This document shows, piece after piece, positions 1 to 39,721 of a stretch of DNA of 39,721 nt. The stretch is from Chiloscyllium plagiosum (Eukaryota): the NCBI RefSeq assembly GCF_004010195.1, contig NC_057754.1, forward strand, positions 11,305,216 through 11,344,936, read 5' to 3'. How positions within the stretch are numbered: position 1 is the stretch's first letter; each line of letters starts with the position of its first letter. The notes beneath the pieces are model-generated. The model saw nothing but the letters and a program-made list of their open reading frames with translations, was not told where the DNA came from and made no database searches. The translations under genes and the position numbers were made by a program.

Positions 1-2260
1 TCATCCAGCATTCCCTATACCTACCAGCCTTCCCTTTCACCCTGACAGGAATATACTTTCTCTGGATTCTTGTTCTCTCATTTCTGAAGGCTTCCCATTT
101 TCCAGCCAACCCTTTATCTGCGAACATCTGCTCCAATCAGCTTTCGAAAGTCCTTGCCTAATACCGCCAAAATTGGCCTTTCTCCAATTAGAACTTCAAC
201 TTTTAGATCTGGTCTATCCTTTTCCATCACTATTTTAAAACCAATAGAATTATGGTTGCTGGCCCCAAAGTGCTCCCCCACTGACACCTCAGTCCACTGC
301 CCTGCCTTATTTTCCAAGCGTAGGTCAGGTTTTGCACCTTCTCTAGTAGGTACATCCACATACTGAATCAAAACATTTTCTTGTACACACTTTAGAAATT
401 CCTCTCCATCTAAACCTTTAACACTATGGCAGCCCCAGTCAATGTTTGGAAAGTTAAAATCCCCTACCATACCTACCCTATTATTCTTACAGATAGCTGA
501 GATCTCCTTACAAGTTTGTTTCTCAATTTCCCTCTGACTATTGGGGGGTCTATAATACAATCGCAATAAGGTGATCATCCCTTTCTTATTTCTCAGTTCC
601 ACCCAAATAACTTGCCAGGATGTATTTCCGGGAATATCCTCCGTCAGCACAGCTGTAATGCTATCCCTTATCAAAAATGCTACTCCCCATCCTCTCTTGC
701 CTCCCTTTCTATCCTTCCTGTAGCATTTGTATCCTGGAACATTAAGCTGCCAGTCCTGCCCATCCCTGAGCCATGTTTCCATAATTGCTATGATATTCCA
801 GTCCCATGTTCCTCACCATGTCTGGAGTTCATCTGCCTTCCCTGTTTGGCCCCTTGCATTGAAATAAATGAAGTTTAATTTTTTAGTCCTATCTTGTCCC
901 TGCCTGCCCTGACTGTTTGACTCACTTCTGTTCTCAGCTGTACCCGTCTCAGATCGATCTCTTTCCTCACTATCTCCCTGGGTCCCAGCCCCCACCCCAT
1001 CTTACTAGTTTAAAATCGTCCCAAGCAGTTCTCGTAAATTTCCCTGCCAGTATATTAGTGCCCTTCCAATTTAGGTGCAATCCATCCTTCTTGTACAGGT
1101 CACTTCTACCCCAGAAGAGATTAAAATGATCCAAAAGTGTGAATCCTTCTCCCATACACCAGCTCCTCAGCCATCCATTCATCTGCCCTATCCTCCTATT
1201 CCTGCCCTCACTAGCTCGTAGCACTGGGAGTAATTCAGATATTACTACCCTAGAGGACCTCCTTTTTAAATTTCTGCCTAACTCTCTGTAATCTCCCTTC
1301 AGAATCTCAACCTTTTCCCTTCCAATGTAATTTGTTCCAATTTCACTGGCCCCTCTTCCCAGTGAGAGCATCCTGCACCCTCTCTGAGACATCCATGATC
1401 CTGGCACCAGGGAAACAACACACCATTCTGCTTTTTCTCTGCTGGCCACAGAAACGTCTGTCTGTACCTCTGACTACAGAATCCCCTAACATAACTGATA
1501 TCTTGGAAGCCGACGTACCCCTCATTGCATTAGAGCCAGTCTCAATATCAGAAACTTGGCTGTTTGTGCTATGTTCCCCTGAGAATCCATCACCTCCTAC
1601 ATTTTCCAAAACAGCATACCTGTTTGCAATGGGTATATCCACAAAAGGTTCCTGCAGTAGCTGCCTACCTCTCTTACCCTTCCTGGAGTTAACCCATCTA
1701 TGTGACTGTATCTGAGACTTCCCCACCTTCCTATAACTGCCATCCATCACATACTGTTGCTGTTACAAATTCCTCATCGCTTCTATCTGTCTCTCCAACC
1801 GATCTACTCGATCTGATAAGATACGCATCCAACAGCATTTATGGCAGATATAATCTGCAGTAACCCTTAAATGCTCTTTAGACTCCCACATCTGACAATA
1901 AGTACATATCACTTCAAAGGCCATTTTTGCTCCTTCACAATATATAGACCCAGAAAATAACACCGTATTATTCCTCAACAAACACTGCCCCAGGTTAAAT
2001 TAATAGCTATGGCTTATATTTTAAGTTTAATCAAGACACTTATCTCCAAAAACAAACAACCAAGAAAGAATCCACTATACTGATTACTGTAGCCTTTCTC
2101 TTGGACAGACTTAAAACAACAATTAACTTATCTGATTCTGTGCTGTGAACTTCGCCCAACAGTTCCTCCAAGATTAGTTGTGAATTTCACTGTTTGGTAA
2201 TTTTCCCAGATGCACTCTTTCCCAGGTTCTCTCTCTCTCTCCACACTGTCCTCGCCCATT
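1..2260 (-). mobile_element. CR1-clade LINE, 5' half (5'UTR, ORF1 zinc finger/coiled coil plus SGNH esterase, ORF2 APE endonuclease), frameshifted
   Basis: ORF1 pieces CTYCQMW...CHKC (1763-1981), LGDSVVRG (1343-1750), GTN and DGLHLN (970-1449); ORF2 endonuclease ETWL...YYRPP...GDFNFP (114-782). Confidence 0.93.
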
Positions 2261-2274
2261 TGCCATTTCCCGGC

Positions 2275-2770
2275 CTACTTCCCCAGCTGATCAAGGTCCT
2301 GCTGCAATTTCTGGTAACCTGCCTCTTGATCCACGATGCCATCTATTTTAATGCCATCAGCAAACTTACTAATCATGCCTCGTACATTCTTATTTAAATC
2401 AATGATATAGGTAACAAACACCAATGAGCCCAGTACCGACTCCTCAGGCACTCCACTAGTCACAGGCCTCCGGTTCGACAAGCATCCTTCCACTATTAGC
2501 CGCTGCATTCCTACCATCAAGCCAGCTTTGTATCTAATTTGCCAGCTTGCCCTGAATTTCATGTGAGCTAACCTTCCAGAGCAGCCTTCCCATGTGGAAC
2601 TTTATCAAAGGCCTTACTGAAATCCACATAAAATATGTCTACTGCCATACACTCATCAACCTTCCTTGTGACTTCATCAAAGAATTCTAACAACTTGGTG
2701 AGGCATGATCTCCCATGCACAAAGCTATGCTGACTGCTCCTAATCAGACCCTGTATTTCCAAATGCATGC
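2275..2770 (-). mobile_element. CR1 LINE reverse transcriptase fragment
   Basis: QHSFVHGRSCLT, DFSKAFDKVPH, GVPEESVLG and KFAD motifs split over frames. Confidence 0.9.
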
Positions 2771-2774
2771 ATAT

Positions 2775-3490
2775 AGAGTCAGAGAGATGTATAGCACAGA
2801 AACAGACCCTTCAGACCAACTTGTCCATGCCGACGAGATATCCTAACCTCATCTAGTCCCATTTGCCAGCACTTGGCCCAGATTCCTCTAAACCCTTCCT
2901 CTTCATATACCCATCCAGCTGCCTTTTGAAAGCTGTAGTTGTACCAGCCTCCACCACTTCCTCTGGCAGTTCATTCCATGCATGCATCACTCTTGGCATG
3001 AAAAATTTGCCCCTTAGGCCCCTTATACATCTTTACCCTCTCATCCTAAACTATGCTGTCTAGTTCTGGACTCGGTCGCCCCAGGGAAAAGATCTTGTCT
3101 GCTTATCCTATCCATGCCCCTCAGGATATCATAAACATGTATAAAGGTTACTCCTCAGCCTCTGACACTCCAGGGAAAACAGCCACAGCCTATTTAGGCT
3201 CTCCAGAGAGTTTGAATCCTCCAAATCTGGCAACATCCTTGTATATCTTTTGTGAATCCTTTCAAGTTTCACGACATCCTTCTGATAAGAAGGAGACCAG
3301 AATTGCATGCAATGTTTCAAAAGTGGCCGAACCAATGGCCCATACGGCCGCAACACGACTCCAATGCCTATACTTAATGCTCTGACCAATAAAGGAAAGT
3401 ATACCAAATGCCTTCTTCACTATCTTATCTATCTGCAACTCTACTTTCAAGGAATTATAAACCTCCCTAGAACATTACCATTAAATGAAT
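2775..3490 (-). mobile_element. CR1 LINE 3' end (ORF2 C-terminus and 3'UTR)
   Basis: LVRPLLKHCMQFWSP...LERIHKRYTRM; 3' tail similar to neighbouring copies. Confidence 0.88.
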
Positions 3491-3491
3491 A

Positions 3492-4765
3492 AGTCATAGG
3501 GTCATAAAGATGTACAGCATGGAAGCACACCCTTTGGTCCAACCCGTCCATGCTGACCAGATATCCCAACCCAATCTAGTCCCACCTGACAGCACCTGGC
3601 CCATAAGCCTCCAAACACTTCCTATTCATATACCCATCCAAATGCCTCTTAAATGTTGCAATTGTACCAGCCTCCACCACTTCTTACGGCAGCTCATTCC
3701 ATACACATACTACCCTCTGCATGAAAAAGTTGCCCCTTAGGTTTCTTTTATATCTTTCCCTCTCACCCTAAACCTATGCCCTCTAGTTCTGGACTCCCCG
3801 ACCCCAGGGAAAAGACTTTGCCGATTTATCCTATCCATGCCCCTCATAATTTTGTAAACCTCTATAAGGTCATCCCTCAGCCTCTGACGCTCCAGGGAAA
3901 ACAGCCCCAGCCTGTTCAGCCTTTCCCTATGGCTCAAATCCTCCAACCCTGGCAACATCCTTGGGGGTCTTTACTGAACCCTTTCAAGTTTCACAACATC
4001 TTTCCGATAGGAAGGAGACCGGAATTGCATGCAATATTGCAACAGTGGCCTAATGAATGCCCTGTAGAGCCGCACCATGACCTCCCAATTCCTGTACTCA
4101 ATGCTCTGACTAATAAAGGAAAGCATACCAAACGCCTTCTTCACTATCATATCTACCTGCGACTCCACTTTCAAGGAGCTATGAACTTGCACTCCAAGGT
4201 CTCTTTGTCCAGCAACACTCCCTATGACCTTACCAAAGTACTGATCTGATTTGCTTTTCCAAAATGCAGCACCTCACATTTATCTTAATTAAACTTCATC
4301 TGTGACTTGGCAGCCCATTGGCCCATCTGATCAAGATCCCACTGCAAAGTAAGGTAACCTTCTCCGGTGTCCACTACAGCTCCAATTTTGGTGTCATCTG
4401 CAAACTTACTAACTATACCTCCTACGTTCACATCCGAATCATTTATACAATGATGAAAAGTAGTGGACACAGCACACCACTGGTCACAGATGTCTGAAAA
4501 GTAAACCTTGACCACCACCCTATGTTTTCTACGATCGAGCCAGATCTGTATCCAAATGGCTAGTTCTCTCTGTATTCCATGTGATTTGATCTTGCTAACC
4601 AGTCTCTCATGAGTAATCGTGTTGAACACCTAACTGAAGTCCATATAGATCACATCCACCACTCTGCCCTCTTTGTTACTTCTTCAGAAAACTCTATCAA
4701 GTTCATGATACATGATTTCCCACACACAAAGCCATGATGACTATCCCTAATCAATCCTTACTAGA
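3492..4765 (-). mobile_element. CR1 LINE 3' part (RT to 3'UTR)
   Basis: KFADDTKIG, YCMQFRSP and LGLFSLE...DLIEVYKIMRG motifs. Confidence 0.9.
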
Positions 4766-4799
4766 CCGGCCAATTTTGCATTTTAGAGAGTCCCCTTTG

Positions 4800-5670
4800 T
4801 CCTCACCTCCCAACCCACGTGTCTCCAGATCCAATGCATCATCCTTAAACACTTCACCAACTCCAACTAGACCAGACCACCAAGAACATCTTCCCCTCCC
4901 CACCCCTCTCTGCCTTCCGCAAGGACCGTTCCCTTTGACAGTCCTTGGTTTGCACCACTCTCCCCACTGACCCCCCCGAACCCCCAGGTACCTTCCCCTG
5001 CAACCGGAAAAGATGGCAAACCTGCTGGCACGTCACCTTACACAGTTCCATTCAAGGCCCCAAACAGTCCTTGCAGGTGAGACAGAGGTTCACCTGCCTC
5101 CCTTCCAACCTAGTTTACTGCATCTGGTGCACCCAATCTAGTCTTTTCTACAACAGGAGACTAAACGTAAACTTAGAAAACAGTTTGCTGAGAATCCGGG
5201 GCGGGGGCGGGCGGCTGGGGCTGGGGGTCTGCAGTGGCCACCCACTTAAATTACCCCAAGCACTCCCTTTCTGACATGATCATCCTTGGCACCCCCATTG
5301 CCAAAACCAACCACTACGCAAATTGGAGGAACAACACGTTATCTTCTCTCTGGACACCCTACAGTCCAAAGGACTCAACTTTGGGGTCTCCAATTTCTAA
5401 TAACCTCCCATCCCATTCCCTGACTCCCTTCCCAGTCACTCCCTATCACTTCCACTGCTCTCTACCTCCAATTGGATTCATTCCTCCCATTGTCCAACCA
5501 ACTACGGTACTTCACCTATCCCCACCTCACTACCCTGCCCCAACCACCTCCTTTATATGCAGCTTCCCAACATCTCCTCCCAATCTTTAAGAAGGGGGAC
5601 ACCTGAGACGTCGATTATTCCACCTCCTGACGCTGCCTGGCTTGCTGTGTTCTTCCAGCCTCCTGCCTGT
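4800..5670 (+). mobile_element. Penelope-like element 3' part (GIY-YIG endonuclease region and pseudo-LTR)
   Basis: GTFPCNRKRWQTC...FTCLPSNLVYCIWC linker/GIY-YIG motif; homologous to 32686-33747; decayed hammerhead-like tail near 5585-5615. Confidence 0.85.
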
Positions 5671-12827: not shown

Positions 12828-14786
12828 TATAGACAATAGGTGCAGGGGTTGGCCATTCTGCCCTTTGAGCCTGCAGCACCATTCAATATGATCATGGCTG
12901 ATCATTCTTAATCAGTATCCTGTTCCTGACTTATCTCCATAACCCTTGATTCCACTATCCTTGAGAGCTCTATCCAACTCTTTCTTAAATGAATCCAGAG
13001 ACTGGGCCTCCACTGCCCTCTGGGGCAGAGCATTCCACACAGCCACCACTCTCTGGATGAAGACGTTTCTCATCATCTCTGTCCTAAATGGTCTACCCCG
13101 TATTTTTAAGCTGTGTCCTCTGTTTCGGCACTCACCCCGCAGCGGAAACATGTTGCCTGCCGCCAGAGTGTCCAATCCTTTGATCATCTTATATGTCTCA
13201 ACCAGATCCCCTCTCAGTCTTCTAAACTCAAGGGTACACAAGCCCAGTCGCTCCAGTCTTTCAGTGTAAGGTAATCCCGCCATTCCAGGAATTGACCTCG
13301 TGAACCTACGCTGCATTCCCTCAATAGCCAGAATGTCTCTCCTCAAATTTGGAGACCAGAACTGCACACAGTACTCCAGGTGTGGTCTCACCAGGGCCCT
13401 GTACAGCTGCAGAAGGACCTCTTTGCTTCTATACTCAATCCCTCTTGTTATGAAGGCCAGCATGCTATTAGCCTTCTTCACTACCTGATGTACCTGCATG
13501 CTTGCCTTCATTGACTGGTGTACAAGAACACCCAGATCTCTATGTGCTGCCCCTTTACCTAAATTGATTCCACTTAGGTGGTAATCTGCCTTCCTGTTCT
13601 TGCCAACAAAGTGGATAACCATACNNNNNNNNNNNNNNNNNNNNNNNNNNNNNNNNNNNNNNNNNNNNNNNNNNNNNNNNNNNNNNNNNNNNNNNNNNNN
13701 NNNNNNNNNNNNNNNNNNNNNNNNNNNNNNNNNNNNNNNNNNNNNNNNNNNNNNNNNNNNNNNNNNNNNNNNNNNNNNNNNNNNNNNNNNNNNNNNNNNN
13801 NNNNNNNNNNNNNNNNNNNNNNNNNNNNNNNNNNNNNNNNNNNNCATCTTTCCTACCACTGAGGTCAGACTAACTGGTCTGTAATTTCCTGCTTTCTCTC
13901 TCCCACCTTTCTTGAAAAGTGGTATAACATTAGCCACCCTCCAATCCTCTGGAACCGTCTCCGAATCTATCGAACTCTGGAAAATAATCACCAACACATC
14001 CACGATTCTCACACCACCTTCTTCAGTACCCTGGGATGTAGACCATCAGGCCCTGGGGAATTATCAACCTTAAGACCTAACAGTCTCTCCAACACCAATT
14101 CCTGGCAAATGTAAATTCCCTTCAGTTCAGGTCCTTCAGCCACTGTTACCTCAGGGGGATTGCTTGTGTCTTCCCCAGTGAACACAGATCTGAGGTACCA
14201 ATTCAATTCTTCTGCCATTCTTTGTTCCACGTAATATAATCCCCTGTTTCTGTCTTCAAGGGCCCAATTTTAGTCTTAACCATTTTTTTGCCTTTCATAT
14301 ACCTAAAAAAGCTTTTACTATCTTCCTTTATATTTTTGACCAGTTTACCTTCATACCTCATTTTTTTCTCTGCGTATTTCCTTCTTAGTAATCCTCTGTT
14401 GTTCTTTAAAAGCTTCCCAGTCCTCCGTTTTCCCACTTATCTTTGCTATGTTATACTTTTTCTCTTTTAACTTTATATGTTTCTTAACTTCCCTCATCAG
14501 CCACGGCCACCCATGCCTCCTCTTAGGATCTTTCTTCCTTTTTGGAATGAACTGATCCTGCATCTTCTGCATTATACACAGAAATATCTGCCATTGTTCC
14601 TCCACTGTCATCCTTGCTAAGGTATTGCACCATTGAATTTTGGCCAGCTCCTCCCTCATAGCTCCATAGTTCCCTTTATAGAACTAAAAAATTGTCACTT
14701 CCGACTGTACCCTCTCCCTCTCAAATTGCAGATTGAAGCTTATTGTGTTATGGTCACTACTTCCCAATGGCTCCTTCACTTCGAGG
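12828..14786 (-). mobile_element. Relatively young CR1 LINE ORF2 and 3' end spanning an N gap
   Basis: PEDWRVANVIPLFKKG...NYRPVSLTS and LVRPHLEYCVQFWSP in long open frames. Confidence 0.95.
13625..13844. other. Assembly gap
   Basis: Run of N. Confidence 1.
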
Positions 14787-16349: not shown

Positions 16350-16750
16350 TGTACACATAAGCCTGACCTTATTTATGCAGCTCCCAGTAACAATACGGTG
16401 ACTGTAAAATGTCTCACAGTGGACCCTGGACTGGAAGATTAGTCCAGGGGCACTAGCCTTGCCAACGCTCCTCCCACTAGCTATGTGGTCACTGTGATTC
16501 AGGTCTCATTTACATACCTCCCAATATCTACATGGTGATTGCAAACAGTCTCAGTGTCCCTGGCCTCAATTGCACAGCCTCCAGTAAAAAGACAGTCTCA
16601 CAGTGACCTTGGCCTCGGGTATCCACATCTCAGTAACTAGACAGTAACAGCCTGCCCTCAGCTAAAGACCACACACCTCTCCCTCCTCCGGCCCAAACGT
16701 ACATACCATCCAGTAACTATAGAGTGACTGTAACCAGTCTCACAGTGAAT
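16350..16750. repeat. Degenerate tandem repeat
   Basis: Recurring CCAGTAAC...GTGACTGTAA...CAGTCTCACAGTG units. Confidence 0.55.
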
Positions 16751-16761
16751 ATGATTGATTC

Positions 16762-16885
16762 AAAGGAGAAAGTGAGGACTGCAGATGCTGGAGTCCCAGA
16801 GTTGAAAAATGTGGTGCTGGAAAAACACAGCAGGCCAGGCAGCATGCGAGGAGCAGGAGAATTGACGTTTCGGGCATAAGCCCTT
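16762..16885 (-). mobile_element. Penelope pseudo-LTR fragment, truncated inside the hammerhead motif
   Basis: Minus strand AAGGGCTTATGCCCGAAACGTCAATT followed by the family 3' end. Confidence 0.75.
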
Positions 16886-17683
16886 ACTCCTACCAGTAAC
16901 TTCCCAATGTCTGTGGCCTGTTTCACAGTCAGCCCAGGCTGATCTGAGTGAATCCTTTGTGTCCTCTTCCATTTAACCCCTGCTTTTGAGAATGCAGCCA
17001 GATGCTCCTCCAGGCTGCAACTGCATTCTCCGCACTGTCTTGGTGCTCCCACATACACCACCTGTCTCTCCCTTTCCGTCCTTAATAGTTCTTGTGAAAT
17101 CCACCCCCTTCCCTGATCCCCACCTTCCAGCTGCAATTTTGGAGAATCCTCACTATGGGCACTGCCACTTCTTCTCCAGCTCATTCATATTTCTTCTCCA
17201 AACAGAAACATGACTCATTGATGGGAAGAAGTGGCAGGTGAATGAGATAAATCATACATCTGAATGCAGATTGCTGTACAACGGTGGGATTAACTTTATT
17301 TTATACGCATAAAAATAGAAGCAGGAAAAATGTCTTTTTATGCATGCAAGCCATTTCACTGAATACAAATGTGCAAAGAAATGATATCTCTGTTTTTTGA
17401 CCAATTTCAACAACACAACATTGGAGAAAGAACATTTGGAAATGATATAGAAACTGCAGAGTTCAATGACTTAGAGGATTACAAATCAAGGTCGGGGAAG
17501 CAAACCATTTCACAAATGGAATGTTTCATTCAGACAGTTAAACCTGTCTTCTTCATTCTTTACTGGTCTCCTTCACATTCAATTTTTTTCTACTCTCTGA
17601 GCCGGCCCCAACATGGATCTCCCTTTCTCTCCCTGGGTATGTAACTTCTTTTTTAGCATGTGCTTGATTTCCAGTGGCCATAC

Positions 17684-17939
17684 TGCAGTGGTTGTGACCA
17701 GGTCAGTCAGTCGTATCTCATAGAATATGAGTTCCCTGACTGTGACTTGGAAGCAGGTAAAGCCATCAAGAAGGTGAATCGATCAGGGAGCCCTGGCTGA
17801 CAGATAAGAAGGGGGAGTGTCAAAGAACCTGACACTTTGATAGCTTTCTTTGAATGAGGCAGTACCAAAGTCAGGGACTGTTCATGTGTATATAAAGGGT
17901 GACTTGGAGACCGACACCAGCCTCATTGTAGTTATTTCA
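17684..17939 (+). mobile_element. Short solo LTR, 256 bp, TSD CATAC
   Basis: TG...CA termini; CATAC at 17679-17683 and 17940-17944. Confidence 0.82.
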
Positions 17940-18321
17940 CATACGTCTCTAGCACTGGGTCTGAATGTTACTGTCTAGCTTCCCATTGTTGTCAAACGTA
18001 TGCAGTGATCAGCTGGGGTAGAATAAGAATGATATGGGGAATGTGGGACCACTATTGGGTTGCATTTGCAGAAGTGTTGATGGATAGGAAAAAAGAGGTT
18101 GCGAATTGAATTGGTTTTGACTGTGAGGGATTCTTGAATTTAATGAATTGATAATTGACTTTTTTCTTGAATGACATCTGAAATGATTCATTGAATGATA
18201 AGCATGAAGGATATCAGTGTATATTGGTACATTCGGATTATTATACTGATTTGAAATGTGATAGAGGTACTCGAATAGGCACAGACCCCATTTACAGAAA
18301 ATCCCAGATTCCTTAATAGAT

Positions 18322-18963
18322 TTATTGTATCCTTGGTGTCTGTTCGATGAAATATTCCGGTGCACAACATTCTGTACACCTGAGTGAACCTTCTACGTCA
18401 CACCTTCTGACATGAAACCCGGTATTCTCCACTGCAGCCAGCTTATCCTGGTGTCGGCTCCGATCTGCATCATGTGCAAATATTTCACTGAAGACAAAAT
18501 ACTTGTGAATGTCTGGTTCAGTTCATATGTCCCGAAATGGGGAATTTTGCAAGGCAGAGATGATCTCTCAGTTCTCGTGTTACTGAAACAGAGGTCTAGG
18601 TATGGGCTATAGGTGGTGTAGAGAATGATACAGCCCACTGGTTCATTAGTGTTCTGGGTTCTGTTGTTCAGCAGATTTTGGAAAAGCTGAGCCGCATTGC
18701 CGTTCTTGTTATTCTGGTTGGGGTTCAGCAACTTACTTTCTGGGCAACGACTGCCGCTGTTCGGGAAGACAGTGGGGTAATTTCTGCCTGGGTTCTTAAG
18801 GAAAAAGTTCACATCGTTGGTAATAAGAGGATGTATTTAGCCGCTGGGGTTCAAGTCTACATCTGTGTTGCTTCCTCCGAACTGGGAAGCAGGTAAACTC
18901 ACCAGGAAGGCAAAATGTCCGCTGCCACAATGGGTCATCTCTTGCCCGGCCAGAAGGTGGAAA
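18322..18963 (-). pseudogene. SNAD-like (secreted novel AID/APOBEC-like deaminase) catalytic exon, pseudogenized
   Basis: TTTTCAG acceptor at 18970-18964; reconstructed GHFAFLVSLPASQ...RCPESKLL...GCIILYTTYSPYLDLCF / IISALQ...KYFVFSEIFAHD...FHVRRCD...RCTEC; stops at 18839-18837 and 18525-18523; frameshift near 18590-18567. Confidence 0.72.
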
Positions 18964-19399
18964 CTGAAAAGGGTGAAATCAGGTTGTGAGTCATGGGACG
19001 GAATTAGGGTAAAACATTCTCTTTTTAGTGAATGGGTCCAATTTGAGATGAGTTACTTGGCACATTGCTTCTCATATTAGAGAAAACATGAAGCACTACA
19101 ATTCACAATTCGAATTTTGCATGGATAGATCAATGCTGATGTACTGTTTTTTCCCTGTCCAAGTGTTCTAGTAAATTGTGGGACCACAAACATCGATGAG
19201 AGGTTTAAAGAGAGAGCCAGGGCGACAGGTAATGTGATGGAGAGAAATTAAAGTAACTGCAGCGGAAACAGCCAAAAGAGTAGGTACGAAGATGGAGAGA
19301 AAATAATGAGGAAGAAACAATGGGGTGTGTGGTTGAGATTGCGAGGAAGAAAAAGAGATGTGAACTGGTAGGACACGCCTCATGTCCACTTCCCTGCCC

Positions 19400-21020
19400 T
19401 TTCCCTGTCTCCCTTAGTTCTCCTACTGATCAAGAATCTACCTCGGCCTTAAATATACACAAGGGCTCTGCCCCCGCAGTTCTCTGTGGCAAAAATGTTC
19501 AAAAACACAGAACCTTGTAGAAAAAGAAATTCCTCCTCACCTCACTGTTAGCTTGATATACAACTAGATAGAAAGATGGTGTGCTCTATTTGCGACGAAA
19601 GAGGGGTGGTAGCTCAAACTCAGAGAAAAGGGATGCAAAGAGAACTGGAGAGCGTAAGAATTTGGACAGCCATAAAACCATTGGGGCCACTCGATCCCTG
19701 TTTGGCCATCCATAAGATCATTCATTCTCAGTGTTTTCAATTCCACTTTCACATCTTACCCTAATTATCTTCTCTCTCAAGATTATCCATCTCCGCCTTA
19801 ACATTCAAGGCAATTGTCTCTACGGCCTTGTGAGGTAGAAATTCCAATGCCAAACAGCTCTCTGAGAGAAAAAATACCCTAATCTGTCCAGAAAGAGGGA
19901 TACCTAATTTTGAAACATTGCCCCTATCTCTGTACTAACCCACAAGATTAAACATCCTTTTCTCATCTGTCCAGTAAAAAAAATTAATGCAGTCATTGCT
20001 GACTCCTGTAAATCATAGTGAACAGCAGGAGAGTCTGTGCAATGTTATCTCAAGAGACAGCTTGTCAATTAAAAGTGTCAACTTAGGAAGCACCTTCCGC
20101 ACTATTTCCAACATATCTCCATTCTACCTAAACCAAGAAGACCAAAACCACAGAGTATTTCAGTCTTAGCCTCACCACTTCCTGTAGAACTGAAGCAGAA
20201 CGTTATTACTCATCTTTGTGCAGTTCCTCCTGCAATAAATCACAGAATGCTACTAGCCGCCTTAATAATTTTCTGTAGCTTCATTTTATTTCACTATGAT
20301 TCACTACTTGCCTCAATGTCACAAACGATCATGATAGATAGATGGATAAGAGCATAAGAACCAAGAGCAAGAGTAGGCCGACTGACCCTTCGAGTCTGGT
20401 CTGCCATTCAGTAAGATCATGGCTGTTCTTTTCATGGACTTAGATCCACTTCCCCACGCTCTCACTGATAAGAACATGAAAATAATTTCACTGTGATTCA
20501 GAGCAGTCAACAATGACTGCCTTATAAGTATCGGAATGGGTTTGACTGGACGGACATGGAAAGGATGTTTCCATGACAGTTCAAAACTGTGCATCATCAT
20601 GGCTCATGTAGAGGAGGTAAGGAGGCTTTGGAATTATATAAACAAGGTCAGTAAATTGGTAAACACGCGCTGGGGCAAACGTGATGTTGTCCACATCGAT
20701 AGAGAAAAAAAAAATCAGAAAGGCAAATTATGATTCAAATGATGATAGAATTGAGCAATATTGGCATCAGTAAGGAGAGGAGGGATAGGACATTGAGGTA
20801 TGACCTTACAGAGGTATATAAATTCCTGAAAGGCATAGATGAGGTTAAAGGGCAAAGGTATTTTCCCGAGTGCAGAGGAGTTCAAAACTAGGGGGCAGAG
20901 TATTTAGGGGAGAGGCGAGAGATATAGGGGACTGGTAGGGTAACCTTTTCACACAGAGGGTGGTTCATATGTGAATTGAATGCCAGAGAAAGAGTCAGAT
21001 GCTGGTACAGATGCAACATT
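19400..21020. mobile_element. Patchwork of old CR1-type 3' fragments on both strands
   Basis: cataagaa/gatcatggctg-type tails; DLTEVYKFLKGID...FFTQRVV at ~20790-20970. Confidence 0.6.
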
Positions 21021-21022
21021 TA

Positions 21023-22490
21023 TAGAACATGGAACATTACTGGACAGTAGAGGCCCTTCGGCCCTCAATGTTGCGCTGACCTGTGGAACCAATCTGAAAC
21101 CCATTGAACCTATACTATTCCAGTCTTGTCCATATGCCTATCCAATAACCACTTAAATGCCTTAAAGTTGGCGAGTCCCCTACTGTTGCAGGCAGTGCGT
21201 TCCATGCTCCTACTACGCTCTGAGTAAAGAAACTACCGCTGACGTCTGCCCAAAACTATCACACCTCAATTTAAAGCTTTGTCTCCTCGTGTTTGCCATT
21301 GCCATCTGAGGAAAAAGGCTCTCACTGTGCAATCTATCTAACCCTCTGATTATCTTATATGTCTCAATTAAGTCAGCTCTCAATCTTCTCTCGAACGAAA
21401 ACAGCCTCAACCTTTCCTCATGAGACCTACCCTGCGTATCAGGCAACATACTAGCAAATCTCCTCTGAATCCTCTCCAAAGCTTCCACATCCTTCCTGTT
21501 CTGTGGTAACCAGAACTGTATGCAATACTCCAAATGTGGCTGCACCAGGGTTCTGTACAGCTGCCGCATGATGTCATTGTTCCGAAATTCAATCCCTCTA
21601 CCAATAAAAGTTAACACATCGTATGCCTTCTTAAGAACCCTATCAACCTGGGTGGCAACTTTCAAGGATCTATGTATCTGGATACTGAGATCTCTCTGCT
21701 CGTCTACACTACCAAGAATTTTACCATTAGCCCAGTACTCTGCATTCCTGTTACATCTTCCAAAGTGAATCATCTCACAATTTTCTGCATAAAACTCCAT
21801 TTGCCAACTCTCAGCCCAGCTCTGCAGCTTATCTGTATCTCTCTGTAACCTACAACATCCCTTGTCACTATCTACAACTCTACTGACTTTAGTCTCATCC
21901 ACAAATTTACTAACCCATCCTCCTATGCCCTCATCCAGGTCATTTCTGAAAATGACAAACAACAGTGGACCCAAAACATATCTTTGCAGTACCCCACTAT
22001 TAACTGAACTCCAGGATAAATATTTCCCATCAACTACCACCTTCTGTCTTCTTTCATTTAGCCAATTTCTGATCCAAAATGCTAAATCACCCTCAATCCC
22101 ATGCCTCTGTATTTTGTGCAATAGCCTACCATGGGGAACCTTATCAAATGTCTTACTGAAATCCATATACAGCACATCAACTGTTTTATCCTCATCCACC
22201 TGTTTGGTCACCTTCTCAAAGAACTCTATAGGTTTTGTGAGGCATGACCTACTCTTCAGAAAACCATGTTGATTACCCCTAATCAACATATTCCTTTCTA
22301 GATGATTAAAAGTCTTATCTCTTATAACCCTTTCCAACACTTTACCCACAACCGAAGCAAGGCTCATAGGTCTATAATTTCCAGAGTTGTCTCCACTCTC
22401 CTCCTTGAAAAAGGGAAGAACATTAGCTATCCTCCAGTCCGGCACTATTCTTGCAGACAATGGTAACAAAAATCAAAGCCAAAGGCTCCG
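21023..22490 (-). mobile_element. CR1 LINE RT region (418-aa open frame) and 3' end
   Basis: NYRPMSL, QHGF, DFSKTFDKVPH, KFVDETK (catalytic ADD altered), HLEYCIQFW. Confidence 0.95.
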
Positions 22491-22592
22491 CATTTTAAAT
22501 GACATTTGGCAGGCACAAGTATATGAAAAGAGTATTTGCCAAATGGGAATAGTTTAGTTTGGAAACTTGCTGGACATGGACAAGTTAGGGAA

Positions 22593-22772
22593 TAGAACAT
22601 AGAATCCCTACAGTGTGGAAACAAGCACCTCAGCCCAGCATTCCACTCTGACCCTGCGAAGAGCATCCCACCCTGACCTTATTACTTGACATTTAACCCT
22701 GACTAATCACCTAACCTACACACTCCTGAACACTATGGGCAACTTAGCATAGCCAATTCACCTAACCTACAT
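22593..22772 (-). mobile_element. HE1-type SINE 3' half
   Basis: ctatgggcaacttagcatagccaattcacctaacct matches the SINEs at 10637 and 27060. Confidence 0.75.
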
Positions 22773-22789
22773 ATAAGTTTGTGGGATGA

Positions 22790-23268
22790 ATCTATCCTTG
22801 CAGAATTCCATTTTACTTTGATTAAAAACAGCATGTAAGCTTCTGTAAATCCGTTTTTAGATTAGAATCAGTCTGACCATTATGGCACAGACAGTCTCAC
22901 ACTGGGAAGCTCACATCTTCAATACATTATCTGGGCCAACATGATGTCAATTGTGAAAGTTCACTTGAGAATGTAACTTTTAAAAATGTTTTGCGATTTA
23001 CATATGAAAGAACTGAAACCAACATGGTCATTCTAACAGATGAGAAACTTAACAAAAAATCTTTTTTCAATATATAATTTCAGTTACATCACACTGTAAA
23101 CATTTGCTATAAATATTGTGTCATACAATCTTATACTCCACAACCACCTGATGAAGGAGAAGCACTGCAAAAGCTGGTGCTTCCAATTAAACCTGTTCGA
23201 CCATAGTTTGGTGTTGTGTGATTTTTCACTTTGTACACCCCAGTCCAATGCTGGCATCTCAAAATCAT
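22790..23268 (+). mobile_element. Second repeat family 3' end (probably Penelope-like) with a decayed hammerhead core at ~23145-23180
   Basis: CACCTGATGAAGGAGAAGCACTGCAAAAGCTGGTG; homologous to 24100-24270. Confidence 0.6.
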
Positions 23269-23770
23269 GAGAGAGAGGGAGAGAAAGACAGTGATACAGA
23301 CAGAGTTCGTCAGTGACAGAGTAGAAACAGAGAAAGGGAAAGAACAACGAAGATGAACAGAGCGAGACAATGAGAGAGACAACTAGTGTATATGTATGTG
23401 TGACAGCGATGGTGCAAGGTAGAGAGCAGGACAGTGAGAGAATGACAGAGAGAAGAAGAGACTGACAGAGACAGTGAGAGACAAAGAGAGAGATTGGGAG
23501 ACTGTGTGAGAGACAGCTGTGAGATATAAAGAGAGAAATATTGACAGAGAGATAGTGGGGGATTGAGGAACAGTGTGGGGGGGGGGAAGAGTGTGTGTAA
23601 GAGAGAGAGAGAGAGAGAGGGAGAGTTAGTGTGTGTGAGAGAGATATTGAGACACAAAGATCGAGAGAGAGAGAGAGAGAGAGACATCGGGGAAGAAGTA
23701 GGAAGAGTGGCAGTGAGAGATCTATAGTGAGAGAGAGTGTGAGTGAGGGAGAGTCAGTGAAAGAGAAAGA
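23268..23770. repeat. GA-rich low-complexity tract
   Basis: Imperfect (GA)n. Confidence 0.9.
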
Positions 23771-24234
23771 TAAAAATCACACAACACCAGCTTACAGTCC
23801 AACAGGTTTATTTGGAAGTACAAGCTTTTGGAGCATTGCTCCTTTGAAAGGTAGCTAGTGGGGCAGTGTCATAGCAAACAATATTTATAGTAAAAGGTTA
23901 AAGTGTCATACAACTGATAGATGTATTGAACAAACCTAGACTGCTGTTAAGTCGTCAATCACTTTGCACAGCGATGCAAGTTTTGATTCATTAATATGCA
24001 AATGTACATATTAATCAATCAAAAGTGGCAACCCATTCTAAGTGATTAAAGGCTTACCAGCAATTTAGGTTTGTTCAATACATCGCATCAATTGTATGAC
24101 ACTGTGAACTTTTATGAAAAATTCTGTGTGCTATGATCCTACCCCACTAGCTCCTTGATGAAGGAGCAGCGCTCTGAAGGCTAATACTGTCAAATAAATC
24201 TATTTGACAATAACCTGGTATTTTGTGATTTTTA
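23771..24234. repeat. Imperfect ~460-bp palindrome made of two inverted element ends
   Basis: TTTTGATTCATTAATATG (23981) / CATATTAATCAATCAAAA (24007); TAAAAATCAC (23771) / GTGATTTTTA (24225). Confidence 0.88.
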
Positions 24235-24554
24235 ACTTTATCCACCCCAGTCCAACAAGGGCACCTCCCCATGAGAGTAAGAGAAGAGAGAGAGAGAGGC
24301 ACTGAGACAGAAAGAGCAACAGAGAGAGAGAGAAAGTGAGAGAGAGAATGCAAGGGAGGAAGAGTGGGATATAATGAGAGAGGGGGAGAGAGAGAGAGAG
24401 GCGGAGTTCGAACCAAATGGAAAGAAACAGAAAGACAGAGGTTCAAAAAAGATTCACCGATCAGAATCACCTCGTCTCTGAATTAACTACTCTGCCCTTG
24501 TGCCCTCAATTTATGTTATTTTCCATATTGGGCCACTTCTTCTTTTGATTCGGC

Positions 24555-27529: not shown

Positions 27530-27985
27530 AGCTATTTGAGCATATGTGGCACCCCCCGCTCCTGGTCTTGGTCAGGCCTTATATAGGTGGCCTGCTTCCC
27601 CACACAGGTTGCAGCTGTTGGATTCCTCCAGTCCTTAGTCAGGTGGCCCTCTTGTTTGCAGTTCCTGCAGATGGTTACTTTGCAGTTTGTTGCCATGTGT
27701 GCTACCATCCTGCAGGGTCGGTACACTGTAGGCTGCCCCGTGTACATCAGGTAGCCTCAGCTCCCTCCAATCACAAAGCTGGATGCTGGGTGGAGGATGT
27801 TCCCACTGGCATCTACCCTCAGAGTCACCTTGACCTGCCGCTTGCTGGTCCATATTCCAAAGGGGTCCACCACATTGGCGCTCCCTCCTTCAAACTGCAT
27901 ATACTTTCCCAGAAAAGTCAGGACAGCTGTTGCTGTGACATGGGGCTTGTACAAATGGATTGTCACAACCCAGCTCCTCTGTGCA
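27530..27985 (-). mobile_element. Tx1-type LINE ORF1 fragment (ZCCHC3-like, CCHC knuckles), frameshifted
   Basis: TIHLYKPHV...DPFGIWTSKRQVKV...HPASSFVIGG; YTGQP...CRNCKQEGHLTKD. Confidence 0.8.
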
Positions 27986-28530: not shown

Positions 28531-29039
28531 TCTAGGAGGGGGCGAGGTGGGGGTGACAAGAGAAAGGATGAGGGTGTGAGGATAGCAGCGATAATTCACT
28601 TCCTCCACAACCCTTCCCCCATCCAGACTACCCCCCAAACCCACTTCCAATTGAAGTGGAGACAAGACCGGGCGGGCGGGCGACCTTTAGAGAGATTCCA
28701 ACATCAAATATTGAGAGGAACTGGCTGGAATGGGACAGAGAGACTCACTGGGGTGGGGGAGCCCTGTTCCTCCTCCTGTTCACTTCGAATCGATGCTAAA
28801 CTACATTCACATGGCACCTGCACAATTCATTGTGCACTCTTTGCATTGTGACACCATCTGAAAATATGATTCACAAATTCACACACGGCTCCTGACCGTT
28901 TTCCCCAACTCAAACCCCTCCACCCCAAAGGACAACGTGGGGATGAAGGAGCAACTGCATGACAATAAGAACAGATCCTGCAGTTAGAAACCATGGGCTA
29001 TAGAGATTGAGACACTGTTACCTCCACTTTTGTGTAGCA

Positions 29040-29620
29040 CTGTCTCTGTCTCTCTTTCCCTCTCTTTCTCCTTCTCTCTCCCTCTATGTGTTTCTATCTC
29101 TGCTTCATACCTTCTCTCTCTCTGTCCCTGTTTCTTTTTCTCTTCGTCAATTACTTTATTTCTCTTTCCTCTCCTTCCGTCCGTGTTTCTTGTTTCTCTT
29201 CTATTGTCCCTGTTTTGTATACTCTCTCTCTGCTCTGTTTACCTCTAGCTCTGTCAATGTTTCTGTCTCTTTCTCTCTATCCCAGGCTGTAATCTCACGA
29301 ATGTGCTGGAGATTGTTTCTAGAGATAGAGGGACAGAGAAATCTCGAACACCCACCACGATTCGTTCAGATCCCGGCTCAATTTGTTTGTCTGTCTGTCA
29401 CCACCCCCACCCCTCCAACATACACACACACACACACCATCTCTTTCCCTGTCTCTCTTTCTGGTTCCACTTTCTTCATTCAGGGGCAATTGGGGATTTT
29501 CCAACATTCCATCTTGTCTCTCTATCTCTTCCTGTCCTCCCCCCTGCCACCCTGCCACATGCTCTCTCTCTCTCTCTCACTGTCTGCATCTGTTTTTCTT
29601 TTCTATCCCCTTTCTTCCAT
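29040..29620. repeat. CT-rich low-complexity tract
   Basis: Imperfect (CT)n and (CA)n. Confidence 0.85.
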
Positions 29621-29878
29621 AAATTCCCTTGGACTAAAAGAAAATTCCATTTTCCCTTTTTAACATAGCAACAAGGTGTATTGTCTATGGGACATTTATT
29701 TGTTTAAACAAACAAGAAAGCTGTAGAGGATTCTGGACGAGAGAGTCAGAGAGAGAGAGAGAGAGAGAAAGATAGACCCTCCTTCTAGATACGCAGCGAA
29801 CTGAATTGAAATGGCCATCCTGCGTCTTATCCTGTGCCTGTGATCTCTAATTATACCATTCTGCCCCAGACAGATCGT

Positions 29879-33170: not shown

Positions 33171-33348
33171 NNNNNNNNNNNNNNNNNNNNNNNNNNNNNN
33201 NNNNNNNNNNNNNNNNNNNNNNNNNNNNNNNNNNNNNNNNNNNNNNNNNNNNNNNNNNNNNNNNNNNNNNNNNNNNNNNNNNNNNNNNNNNNNNNNNNNN
33301 NNNNNNNNNNNNNNNNNNNNNNNNNNNNNNNNNNNNNNNNNNNNNNNN
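33171..33348. other. Assembly gap
   Basis: Run of N. Confidence 1.
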
Positions 33349-36459: not shown

Positions 36460-39153
36460 TAGAACATAGAACAATACAGCACAGAACAGGCCCATCGGTC
36501 CTTGATGTTGTGCCGACATGTGAACTAATCTAAGCCCATCCCTCTACACTATCCCATCAATATCCGTATGCTTATCCAAGGACTGTTTAAATGCCCTAAT
36601 GTGGCTGAGTTAACTACATTGACAGGCAGGGCATTACCACTCTCTGAGTAAAGAACTTGCCTCTGACATTCTGTCTTCAATCTATCACCCCTCAATTTGC
36701 AGCTATGACAACTCATACAATCTGATTCATCATCCTAGGAAAAAACTCTCATTGTCCACACTATCTAATCCTCTGATCATCTTGTATGTCTCTATTGAAT
36801 CCCTTCTTAGTCTTCTTCTCTCCAATGAGAACACACCCAAGACCTTTCCTCATAAGCTCCAGACCAGGCAACGTCCTGGTACCTTTTCCAATGCTTCCAC
36901 ATCCTTCCTGTAATGGGCGACCAGAAATGTAAACAATATTCCAAGTGAGACTGTACCAGCATTTTGTACAGCTGAAGCATGACATCACAACTCTGGAACT
37001 CAATCCCTCTACCAATAAAACCTAACACACCGTATGCCTTCTTAACAGCACTGTCACCCTGGGTGGCAACTTTAAGGGATCTATGTACATGGACACCAAG
37101 ATCCCTCTGCACACCCACACGACCACGAATCTTTGCATGACCCAGTATTCTACCTTCCTGCTTTTCTTCCCAAAGTGAATCAAGTCACATTTAGCTGTAT
37201 TGAAGCCACATCTCAGCCCAATTCTGCAGTTTATCCAAGGCCCCCTGCAACCTACAACATTCAACCACACTGCCCACTACTTCAAGGACTTTAGTGTCAT
37301 CTGCAAACTTATTGACCCATCCAACATTGCCTGCATCCAAGTCATTTATAAAAATGAAGAACAGCAGTGGTCCCAAAACAGATCCTTGTGGCACACCCCT
37401 AGTAACCAGACTCCAGGCTGAATATTTTCCATCCAGCATCACTCGCTGCCTTCTTACAAAAAGCTCGTTTCTAATCCAATCAACTAAATCACCCTCAATC
37501 TCATGCCTCCACATTTTCTCCAAACGCCTACCATGTGGACCCTTATCAAAGGCTTTACTGAAGTCCATGTACACCACGCCAACTGCCCTACCCTCATTCA
37601 CATGCTCGGTCACCTTCTCAAAAAACTCAATAAGGTTTGTGAGACACGACCTACCCTTGACATAATGATGTTGGCTATCTTCATTCAAATAGTTGCTTGC
37701 TATATGATTATAAATCCTATCTCTTATCATCCTTTCCAAAACTTTTCCTACAACAGATTGTAAGGTTCACTGGTCTATAATTACCTGGGTCATCTCTACT
37801 GCCCTTCTTGAACAAGGGCACAGCATTTGCAATCCTCCAGTGCACTGGTACTAAACCTGTAGACAATGATGACTCAAAAGTAAAGGCCAAAGGCTCCACC
37901 ATCTGCTCCTGAGCTTCCCAGAGAACCCTCGAATAAATCCCATCTGGCCCAGGGAACTTATCTACTTTCACATCTTCTAGAATTGATAACACCTCCTCCT
38001 TACTAATCTTAATCCTTTCTAGTCTAATAGCCCATATCTCAGCCTTATCTCTACAATATTCTCCTTTTCCTGAGTGAAAACAGATGAGAAATATTCGTTT
38101 AGCACCACTCCAATCTCCACAGGGTCCACACACAACGTCTCACTTCTGTTTGACTGGCCCTATTCCTCACATACAAAGCTTTAGAGTTTTCATTTATTTT
38201 ACCTGCTAAAGACTACTCATGTCCCTCTTTGTTCTTCTTAACTCTCTCTTTAAATCCTTCCTCGCTAATCTGTAACTCTCCATTGCCTCATCTGAACTAT
38301 CTGGTCTCAACGTCACATAAGCTTCCCTCTTCAGCTTAAGAAGAGATACAATTTCTTTAGTAGACCATGGTTCCCTTATCTTATCATTTCCTCCCCGCCT
38401 GAAAGAGACATACCTATTAAGGACATGCAATATCTGTTCCTTAAACCAGCTCCACATTTCGATTGTCACCATCCCCTGCATTTTGCTACTTCATTCTATG
38501 CCTCCAAAGTCTTGCCTAATCGCATTATAATTGCCCTTCCCCCATCTATAACTCTTGCCGTGTGGCATGTACCTATCTCTTTCCATCGCTAAATTCAATG
38601 TAACCGATTAATGGTCACTCTCTCCAAAGTGCTCACTTAACACTAAATCAAACACCTGGCTAGTTCATTACAAAGTACCAGGTCTAGTGTGCTCTCTCCT
38701 CTTGTCGGACCTTCGACATACTGTGTCAGGAAACCCTCGAGCACACATTGGACAAAAGCTGATCCATCCGAAGTACTAGAGTTATAGCTATTCCAGTCAA
38801 TGTTGGGAAGGTTAAAGCCCCCATAATGACGACTCTGTTCCTTTCACTTCTACCCAGAATCATTTTCCCAATCCTCTCCACATCCCTGGAACTTTGCAGA
38901 GGCCTCTAAAGAACTCCTTGCACTGTGACTCTCCTCTCCGGTTTCTAACCTCAGCCCATACCACCTCAGTAGACGAGTCCTTGTCAAAAGTTCTTACAGC
39001 CACTGTTATACTGTCCTTGACTAACAAAGCCACTCCTCCCCCCCTTTTACCACCTCCTCTGATCTTAATGTGAGATCTAAATTCTGGAACATGCAATATC
39101 CACTCCTGACCCTGCTCTATCCATGTGTCTGAAATGGCCACAACACCGAAGTC
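36460..39153 (-). mobile_element. CR1 LINE, nearly complete degenerate ORF2 and 3' tail
   Basis: Endonuclease VVAISDTW (~39140); RT DFSKAFDK, GVPQGSVLGP, KFADDTK; (AGAACAT) tail at ~36460. Confidence 0.93.
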
Positions 39154-39721
39154 TTTTCACAGCAGAGAGCGGCACGAGCTGGGCGGAAGTGAAGTTGGAG
39201 GCAGAGCTGGTCGGGAAGGTAAGTGATTGATATTTGAGTGGGGAGGAAGCAGGCAGTGCAGGGATCCCCTGTGGTCGTTCCTCACAACAATAAGCATACC
39301 GCTTTGGATACTGTTGGGGGGGAGGGCCTAGCAGGGGTAAGCTGCAGTGACCACGTCTCTGGCACGAGGTCCAGCTCTGAGGCTCAGAAGGGAAAGGGGG
39401 AGAGGAGGAGAGCGCTAGTTATAGGAGACTCTATAGTTAGAGGGATGGACAGGTGGTTCTGTGGACATGGGCGAGACTCTCGGATGGTTTGTCGCCTCCC
39501 GGGTGCCAGGGTCCGAGACGTCTCAGACCGTGTCTTCAGGATCCTTAAGGGGCAGGGTGTGCAGCCAGAAGTCGTGGTGCACGTTGGCACCAATGACATA
39601 GGTAGGAAGAGGGGTGGGGAGGTCACTCAGGAGCTCAGGGAGTTAGGCTGGAAGCTAAAAGCTAGGACAGACAGAGTCGTCATCTCTGGGTTGTTGCCGG
39701 TGCCACGTGACAGTGAGGCAA
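39154..39721 (+). mobile_element. CR1 LINE 5' portion with ORF1 SGNH esterase, runs off the window
   Basis: Plus frame ALVIGDSIVRG...LPGARVRDV...VHVGTNDIG...VVISGLLPVPR. Confidence 0.92.

Follow-up and report, generated by a model that had tools for sequence, protein, structure and literature searches.

We found that the window, a stretch of 39,721 nt from the shark Chiloscyllium plagiosum, carries on its minus strand what is, with high confidence, an unprocessed pseudogene, no longer functional, derived from a shark SNAD1 gene. The SNAD1s are little-studied secreted deaminases of the AID/APOBEC-like type, thought to be antiviral or antimicrobial. On our account, a duplication at the DNA level copied a segment of a SNAD1 gene that included exon 2, the 3' part of the intron, and the 3' flank. 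Exon 1 was lost after the duplication, or was never included. The copy then decayed: it acquired three nonsense codons, one 1-nt deletion, and one 9-nt deletion, and a zinc-ligand Cys was lost as well as a Cys of the cluster. The features on which this account is built are collected in Table 1.

Table 1. Features of the window, with the strand on which each is read and the evidence for it.
Feature	Position	Strand	Evidence
SNAD1 exon-2 pseudogene	18322..18963	minus	tblastn, Pfam SNAD1, paralogue alignment
Premature TAA stop at exon-2 codon 42 (Tyr in P0001)	18837..18839	minus	alignment
C-P-E motif kept: Cys as zinc ligand, Glu as catalytic residue	18738..18746	minus	alignment; C106/E108 invariant 12/12
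Zinc-ligand Cys (C154) changed to Tyr, TAC; PC to PY	18600..18602	minus	alignment to L002
1-nt deletion (18579/18578), then TGA 18570-18568 replacing a Cys codon	18568..18579	minus	L002 alignment
Premature stop TGA replacing a nearly invariant Trp (W180 of P0001)	18523..18525	minus	alignment
In-frame 9-nt deletion (three codons)	18448..18449	minus	L002 alignment
Phe (TTC) in place of C241, the last of four Cys in the C-terminal cluster	18349..18351	minus	alignment
3' flank common to paralogues	17690..18321	minus	blastn
3' end of intron 1, acceptor AG 18965-18964 and polypyrimidine run	18964..19222	minus	blastn 73-80% identity
Intron segment absent from main paralogue clade	19223..20193	minus	matches C79589 and C45:12.17 Mb
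Last traceable piece of intron 1	20194..20310	minus	blastn 73-77% identity
LINE-like open stretches	117-812, 973-1473, 12915-14045, 21216-22472, 27535-27756, 37194-37766	minus	open-stretch scan
LINE-like open stretch	39238-39720	plus	open-stretch scan

To which family does the locus belong? The closest public homologue, P0001 (245 aa), was placed on the window by tblastn (E 1.4e-68): residues 34-162 fall on 18962-18576, and 18573-18337 holds residues 164-245. The locus is colinear over residues 34-245 with SNAD1-domain proteins of bamboo shark and epaulette shark at 64-74% identity (tblastn), and it covers the domain equivalent of residues ~34-245 of the intact shark proteins. Given this placement of P0001, the locus is a single exon that formerly encoded the whole deaminase domain, and what was matched is neither a chance pattern of motifs nor a transposon. 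Judged from these alignments, the observation is far beyond chance.

A Pfam-A scan of four pieces of the pseudogene pointed to the same family. Two of the four matched SNAD1 (PF18744) in colinear order: 18396-18836(-) with E 2e-5, 25 bits, over profile positions 86-133, and 18325-18522(-) with E 0.067 over positions 153-201. The other two pieces had no Pfam-A match, and none of the four matched a transposon or an unrelated family. The best score equals the gathering cut-off of PF18744 (25 bits) exactly; for comparison, this profile gives 50.8 bits for exon 2 of the intact paralogue L002 and 64.2 bits for P0001. This borderline score is explained by the lesions that split the gene. When 5.8 billion proteins were searched through a word index, 10 candidates emerged, of which five are proteins from the sharks Chiloscyllium punctatum and Hemiscyllium ocellatum (P0001-P0005; E 1e-30 to 6.5e-26, 67-73% identity), all with PF18744. 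Phmmer, run exhaustively on 1.84 billion representatives, added only six more distant relatives, among which Stegostoma, Pristiophorus, Mustelus, and the bowfin Amia are named. SNAD1 was matched by all 12 aligned homologues (Pfam), with stray weak matches to NAD1 in two of the 12 and to APOBEC4 in one. An initial annotation of this DNA had called the locus SNAD-type, had taken the host for a probable cartilaginous fish, and had proposed a profile search. The search returned SNAD1 on two pieces and no transposon or unrelated family, and the nearest proteins are shark SNAD1-domain proteins (Chiloscyllium and Hemiscyllium, then Stegostoma, Pristiophorus, and Mustelus), in keeping with both calls.

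We reproduced the minus-strand translation of the initial annotation letter for letter (18963-18322). Its TTTTCAG splice acceptor is present, with the G at 18964 directly before the pseudogene frame, and its frameshift shows up in the pairwise alignment to L002 and also in tblastn, whose two pieces lie in different frames. The first frame starts at 18962 (-), reaches the TAA at 18839-18837, and resumes in an open stretch of 147 aa (18836-18396). The second, shifted by one base, runs from 18522 to 18325 (-) and is stopped by a TAA at 18324-18322; this is four codons beyond the stop of the paralogues, which has been lost. We also considered a small intron that would remove the TAA at 18839-18837 in frame, using GTGAGT (18902-18897) as donor and a pyrimidine-AG at 18795 as acceptor. 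This intron was rejected because the intact paralogues and the shark proteins code straight across the region, and because GTGAGT is, in the alignment, a mutated GTGGCT that encodes Val-Ala in the paralogues.

Lesions were scored against L002 (639 nt), to which the pseudogene is 81.7% identical at the nucleotide level over its whole length. This alignment revealed seven independent lesions over 500 nt of exon 2. The frameshift and the stops listed in the initial annotation are all present in the sequence; the list had missed a third stop, the TGA that lies beside the frameshift. Several lesions fall on residues that the family conserves. Residues invariant in all 12 homologues include C106 and E108, which form the CxE motif, and C154, while C158, W180, C224, C232, C235, and C241 are nearly invariant. 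At the C154 column, Cys is read wherever any of the 38 other loci in the census alignment has a residue. The second Cys of PC-x3-C (C158) is kept. The C-terminal cluster is incomplete and retains three of its four Cys (the one after RR and the CxxC pair). The zinc site, [H/C]xE with PC-xn-C, was present ancestrally and is now destroyed.

The initial annotation had expected an HxE motif. No such motif is present; its equivalent is the C-P-E at 18746-18738, whose Cys and Glu are the residues invariant in the 12 homologues. Because C106 and E108 are invariant in this alignment, the shark SNAD1 clade uses CxE and PC-x3-C, not HxE. A carp study from 2024 describes HxE, with a His ligand, in the SNAD1s that it compared (PMC11004436). 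The shark clade and one bowfin protein differ from those SNAD1s in carrying CxE.

With three stops, a 1-nt deletion, the loss of a zinc-ligand Cys and of a cluster Cys, and no exon 1, the locus is indeed not functional as assembled, as had been stated at the outset. The pseudogene cannot make a secreted deaminase.

Are the lesions real, or is this a working SNAD1 gene broken only through errors of assembly or consensus? We compared the window with Logan contigs at single-copy depth from runs X6 and X10, which belong to two further studies of this species. Over 18745-19094/19104 and over 17878/17782-18427, 0-2 differences separate the contigs from the window, and the TAA at 18839-18837 is included. 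As the single-copy contigs of both runs agree, the TAA and both exon ends are real. The middle of the exon is almost uncovered: single-copy depth in the bin 18569-18625 is 4.6 and 2.9 in the two runs, a stretch almost without single-copy contig support, which leaves some room for an assembly error. For the lesions within 18523-18602 (the frameshift, both TGA codons, and the change from Cys to Tyr), the evidence comes mainly from the assembly and from a run that is possibly its source. Thus the read check proposed in the initial annotation confirmed the TAA in two studies and barely covered the lesions between 18523 and 18602. Dozens of paralogues could also have confused the assembler. Set against these points, the TAA recurs in independent studies, the seven lesions are spread over 500 nt, two conserved Cys were lost by substitution and not by indel, and exon 1 was not found in the window. 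Moreover, the identity of 76-85% to all but one long copy (63.7% to the most decayed) argues against a chimera. We consider a working gene extremely improbable.

The sister species (run X17), in which the locus is ~97% identical, provided information on timing. There, a T>A difference at 18837 gives TAT (Tyr), showing that the TAA nonsense change arose after the species split. The sister single-copy contig lacks the extra base at 18573 that a paralogue-depth contig has, which suggests that the 1-nt deletion is older than the TAA change. For most of the lesions, the order is one that we infer. Summed depth over the conserved parts of the exon reached ~60-75x the single-copy depth in both species, which fits the family census given below. 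In a single-cell RNA run (X21, ~2% sampled), we found 15 reads, all of them partial fits on a high-copy repeat at 17714-17941, which bear on that repeat and not on expression of the pseudogene.

Next to the exon, the gene structure of the paralogues shows how the copy was made. Intact family members in the same genome have two coding exons, and exon 2 holds the whole zinc-deaminase domain with the CxE motif, PC-x3-C, and the four-Cys C-terminal cluster. In five paralogues, exon 1 has 33 codons, begins with ATG, is hydrophobic, and lies ~0.9-1.0 kb upstream of exon 2; judged by eye, it probably encodes a signal-peptide-like N-terminus. A GTAAGT-type donor follows exon 1 in four of the five, and the L001 copy has no GT there. 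The acceptor context ctttcag is common to nearly all of the 44 loci compared, the window included. Exon 1 was not found in the window by tblastn (word size 2, E up to 10), by blastn (word size 7), or by nhmmer --max with a profile of five loci, which gave a best E of 0.98 in the wrong place. The same nhmmer search did not find it in L049, a locus on the same scaffold. No signal-peptide exon was detected within the 20.7 kb upstream of the pseudogene, and exon 1 possibly lies beyond the upstream end of the window.

DNA upstream of the acceptor is that of the family intron. The stretch adjoining the acceptor (18964..19222) matches the introns of L001, L003, L005, L006, L007, and L008, and the last traceable piece (20194..20310) matches those of L001, L002, L003, L005, L007, and L008 (blastn). 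In total, ~380 nt of the pseudogene intron is homologous to the paralogues. This homology ends at 20310, ~640 nt of intron short of the position that exon 1 takes in the paralogues, and a LINE reverse-transcriptase fragment (21161-22472) comes after that end. The segment between the two pieces (19223..20193, 971 nt) has a full-length match of 89% at C45:12174731-12175715 and a 70% match on contig C79589. The C79589 copy, the other early-branching one, aligns at 71.7% identity (L050 683-2221 with window 18240-19774). The idea that 19223-20193 is a new insertion was rejected, as it is older intron sequence common to the C79589 copy and C45:12.17 Mb. It had no match in a phage collection (megablast). 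Within it, at ~19372-19558, lies a SINE-like high-copy repeat with 2750 first-look candidates in the genome.

The 3' flank is likewise familial. Positions 18321-17998 are common to the 3' flanks of the main clade (L004, L005, L007, and L008; blastn), and 17990-17690 is common to those of an older clade at an equal relative distance, with full-length matches ~300-350 bp downstream of SNAD exons on C99781, at C8:79.73 Mb, and at C8:44.51 Mb.

Because the acceptor, the intron, and the 3' flank are all homologous to the paralogues, the pseudogene is an unprocessed duplicate made at the DNA level and not a retrocopy. A processed pseudogene, retrotransposed from a SNAD1 mRNA, should show homology along the mRNA across the exon junction; here, homology follows the intron and not exon 1. 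In favour of such an origin, LINE fragments in the window could have supplied the reverse transcriptase, and the pseudogene is alone on its scaffold. Yet protein similarity ends exactly at the intron acceptor of the family, the DNA upstream of it is homologous to the paralogue intron, and the flank beyond the gene is common to the paralogues. A processed origin has next to no probability.

Several other observations concern the surroundings of the exon. A SINE-like repeat at ~17782-17939 in the 3' flank has 1201 genome candidates for its core and reaches a contig depth of up to ~16,000; in the single-cell RNA run, reads with poly(A) tails came from other copies of this repeat. Inside the conserved 3' flank, ~560 nt downstream of the pseudogene, 34 nt at 17745-17778 (-) match the part of SNAD1 exon 2 that encodes the first strand (88% identity; tblastn with P0004, E 0.077), and this stretch may have been left by a tandem neighbour that is now gone. 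Further upstream, window positions 19028-23504 form a 4.5-kb inverted segmental duplicate with L049 1224-5713 (C45:12,171,423-12,175,912), 850 kb away and 88.4% identical. The duplicate carries the intron remnant and the LINE beyond it, and it ends 65 nt before the acceptor of the SNAD exon; after its end come a CT-rich low-complexity run and then an N run. A second SNAD copy at C45:12.17 Mb was rejected, as there is no SNAD exon between the end of the homology and the N run.

The rest of the window is dominated by LINE debris. Of the 29 open stretches scanned, six had a match in Pfam, and we saw no further host gene. RVT_1 was matched at 21216-22472 and 37194-37766 (one of these open stretches has 419 aa), the endonuclease Exo_endo_phos at 117-812, and the further matches are two GDSL-esterase-like ORF1 pieces and one zinc knuckle. 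N runs occupy 13625-13844 (220 bases, inside a LINE-like open frame) and 33171-33348 (178 bases); they mark gaps or sequence that was withheld. CT/GA-rich low-complexity tracts at 23087-24482 and 29004-29660, and also in 1-5000, read as frames with Ser/Leu runs, and GC skew is strong at the window ends, down to -0.38.

We examined the fold on P0001, which was modelled with AlphaFold2 from the 12-sequence alignment. The model has a mean pLDDT of 66.8 and a pTM of 0.73; short helices at 58-62 and 84-89 follow a strand at 51-57, and pLDDT is below 50 over residues 72-104. In a Foldseek search against the PDB, the top rows were nearly all APOBEC1, AID, APOBEC3, and APOBEC2, at E values of 0.008-0.18, and no row had E <= 0.001. 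VIA-align ranked APOBEC3G first, with Z 5.8 and an rmsd of 4.4-4.7 over 142 residues, a score below the safe level of the tool. Its top 26 rows were almost all zinc deaminases (RibD, ADAT2/3, AID, APOBEC3H, dCMP deaminase, APOBEC1, APOBEC2, and TadA). The fold check proposed in the initial annotation thus brought mostly AID/APOBEC and other zinc deaminases to the top of two fold searches, if weakly. A profile of the 12 homologues against PDB sequences retrieved no deaminase, only four unrelated rows at E 0.025-0.54. With classical AID/APOBEC proteins (AID, APOBEC1/2/3), the family would have in common a zinc-deaminase fold, as far as the P0001 model goes (Z 4.7-5.8), whereas the SNAD1 homologues have no significant sequence match to solved deaminases. 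The model is consistent with an AID/APOBEC-type zinc-deaminase fold without proving it, and membership in SNAD1 is assigned on the sequence profile and not on the fold. An enzymatic role of the intact members is probable from family membership and the literature.

How large is the family to which the pseudogene belongs? A six-frame search with P0001 of the genome (3.56 Gb, 101,977 contigs), in which the window occupies C45:11,305,216-11,344,936, gave 114 matches, from which the window and the 48 other exon-2 loci L001-L048 were cut out and each aligned to the L002 exon. The genome thus holds at least 49 SNAD1 exon-2 loci: four intact and full-length, 39 visibly broken, and six partial ones without a lesion seen. 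Some single-frameshift copies counted as broken could be assembly errors, and many of the copies are on unplaced contigs of small size or adjoin N runs. The four full-length loci free of stops and frameshifts are L002, L003, L004, and L006; L002 has TC in place of PC. The broken loci comprise 29 full-length copies, the window included, and 10 partial ones. Among the six partial loci without lesions, two are cut by N runs and one has an in-frame deletion of 147 nt that removes the PC motif. Both the paralogue search and the birth-and-death picture put forward in the initial annotation hold, as intact copies and many decayed ones were found in the same genome.

The 39 copies of at least 450 nt are distinct loci and not duplicate haplotigs, because no pair is 98% or more identical (the closest reaches 97.5%). 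The same TGA stands at codon 170 (CGA elsewhere) in 16 copies that cluster in the tree, which indicates that broken copies went on duplicating. A TAG at codon 172 is common to five copies, and the public bamboo-shark protein P0004 stops at that position. The main clusters lie at C17:71.19-71.22 Mb, C8:44.5-48.0 Mb, and C8:78.8-79.7 Mb. The pseudogene is apart from these, alone on scaffold C45, and its branch in the tree is long, early, and isolated. It is 63.7-85.1% identical to the 38 other long copies, 63.7% being the value for the most decayed copy, and 80-82% identical at the nucleotide level to the four intact ones. P0001-P0005 and the four intact loci resemble the pseudogene in the exon 2 boundary and the motifs; unlike it, they have open frames and keep the conserved Cys, individual variants aside.

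Could a dead copy have been kept for a non-coding use, for example as a noncoding RNA or as a donor of gene conversion to intact SNAD1 genes? In favour of such a use, an orthologue exists in the sister species, and the 16 copies with a common TGA show that broken copies keep duplicating. However, ~97% identity between sister species is the neutral expectation, and intron and exon differ alike. The pseudogene also lies on another scaffold than the main C17 and C8 clusters, its identity of 76-85% to all but one long copy includes no higher-identity tract that we could see, and no Rfam match at gathering score was found in 16500-21200. We therefore regard a retained non-coding use as very unlikely. 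The wider notion that disabled SNAD1 copies form a sequence reservoir from which gene conversion feeds the few secreted deaminases still intact, by analogy with the pseudo-V segments that diversify chicken antibody genes, is a long shot. If it were true, the dead copy would mark an undescribed system in which disabled copies are still duplicating.

We return to the reading of the locus as an unprocessed, dead SNAD1 copy and compare it with what has been published. The SNADs were defined in 2018, and in the accessible text of that paper SNAD1 is listed from bony vertebrates only; lineage-specific expansion and pseudogenisation are given as traits of the family (PMC5889660). SNAD1s are described as secreted, with a Cys-rich C-terminus that replaces the last helices (Krishnan 2018, PMC5889660). 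As in the pseudogene, SNAD1 in that description has a first strand, a [C/H]xE helix, a hydrophobic strand ending in (S)PC-xn-C, an FVF strand, and a C-terminal Cys cluster (strand-end Cys, CxxC, and last Cys); the window copy differs in being broken and without a signal-peptide exon (PMC5889660). Proteomics detected two proteins of the SNAD1 family in the plasma of nurse sharks (Bakke et al. 2022, PMC9207270). These proteins group with SNAD1 in a tree and push the origin of SNAD1 back to a time before cartilaginous and bony fishes diverged (PMC9207270). Compared by description, they belong to the same family and likewise come from an elasmobranch, and they are two expressed, secreted proteins whereas the window holds a dead genomic copy; the accessible text of that report gives no genome-wide count of SNAD1 genes or pseudogenes (PMC9207270). 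Beyond this 2022 report of two plasma proteins, the literature searched yielded no account of SNAD1 genes or pseudogenes across a shark genome, and shark SNAD1 proteins stand in genome annotations and databases as 'uncharacterized protein'. The initial annotation had spoken of a poorly described shark family; this is right in that the literature searched holds no genome-wide account, and too strong in that plasma proteins were reported in 2022 and annotations exist.

Taken together, the pseudogene is an ordinary dead member of a known family, and the size and decay of that family are the more useful result. The pseudogene does nothing itself; its value is as a pointer to a large expansion of SNAD1 in a shark, with heavy gene death. 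The CxE active site of the shark clade and the two-exon structure are useful for annotating SNAD1 genes. With at least 39-49 distinct loci, the shark of the window may have one of the largest SNAD1 arsenals known.
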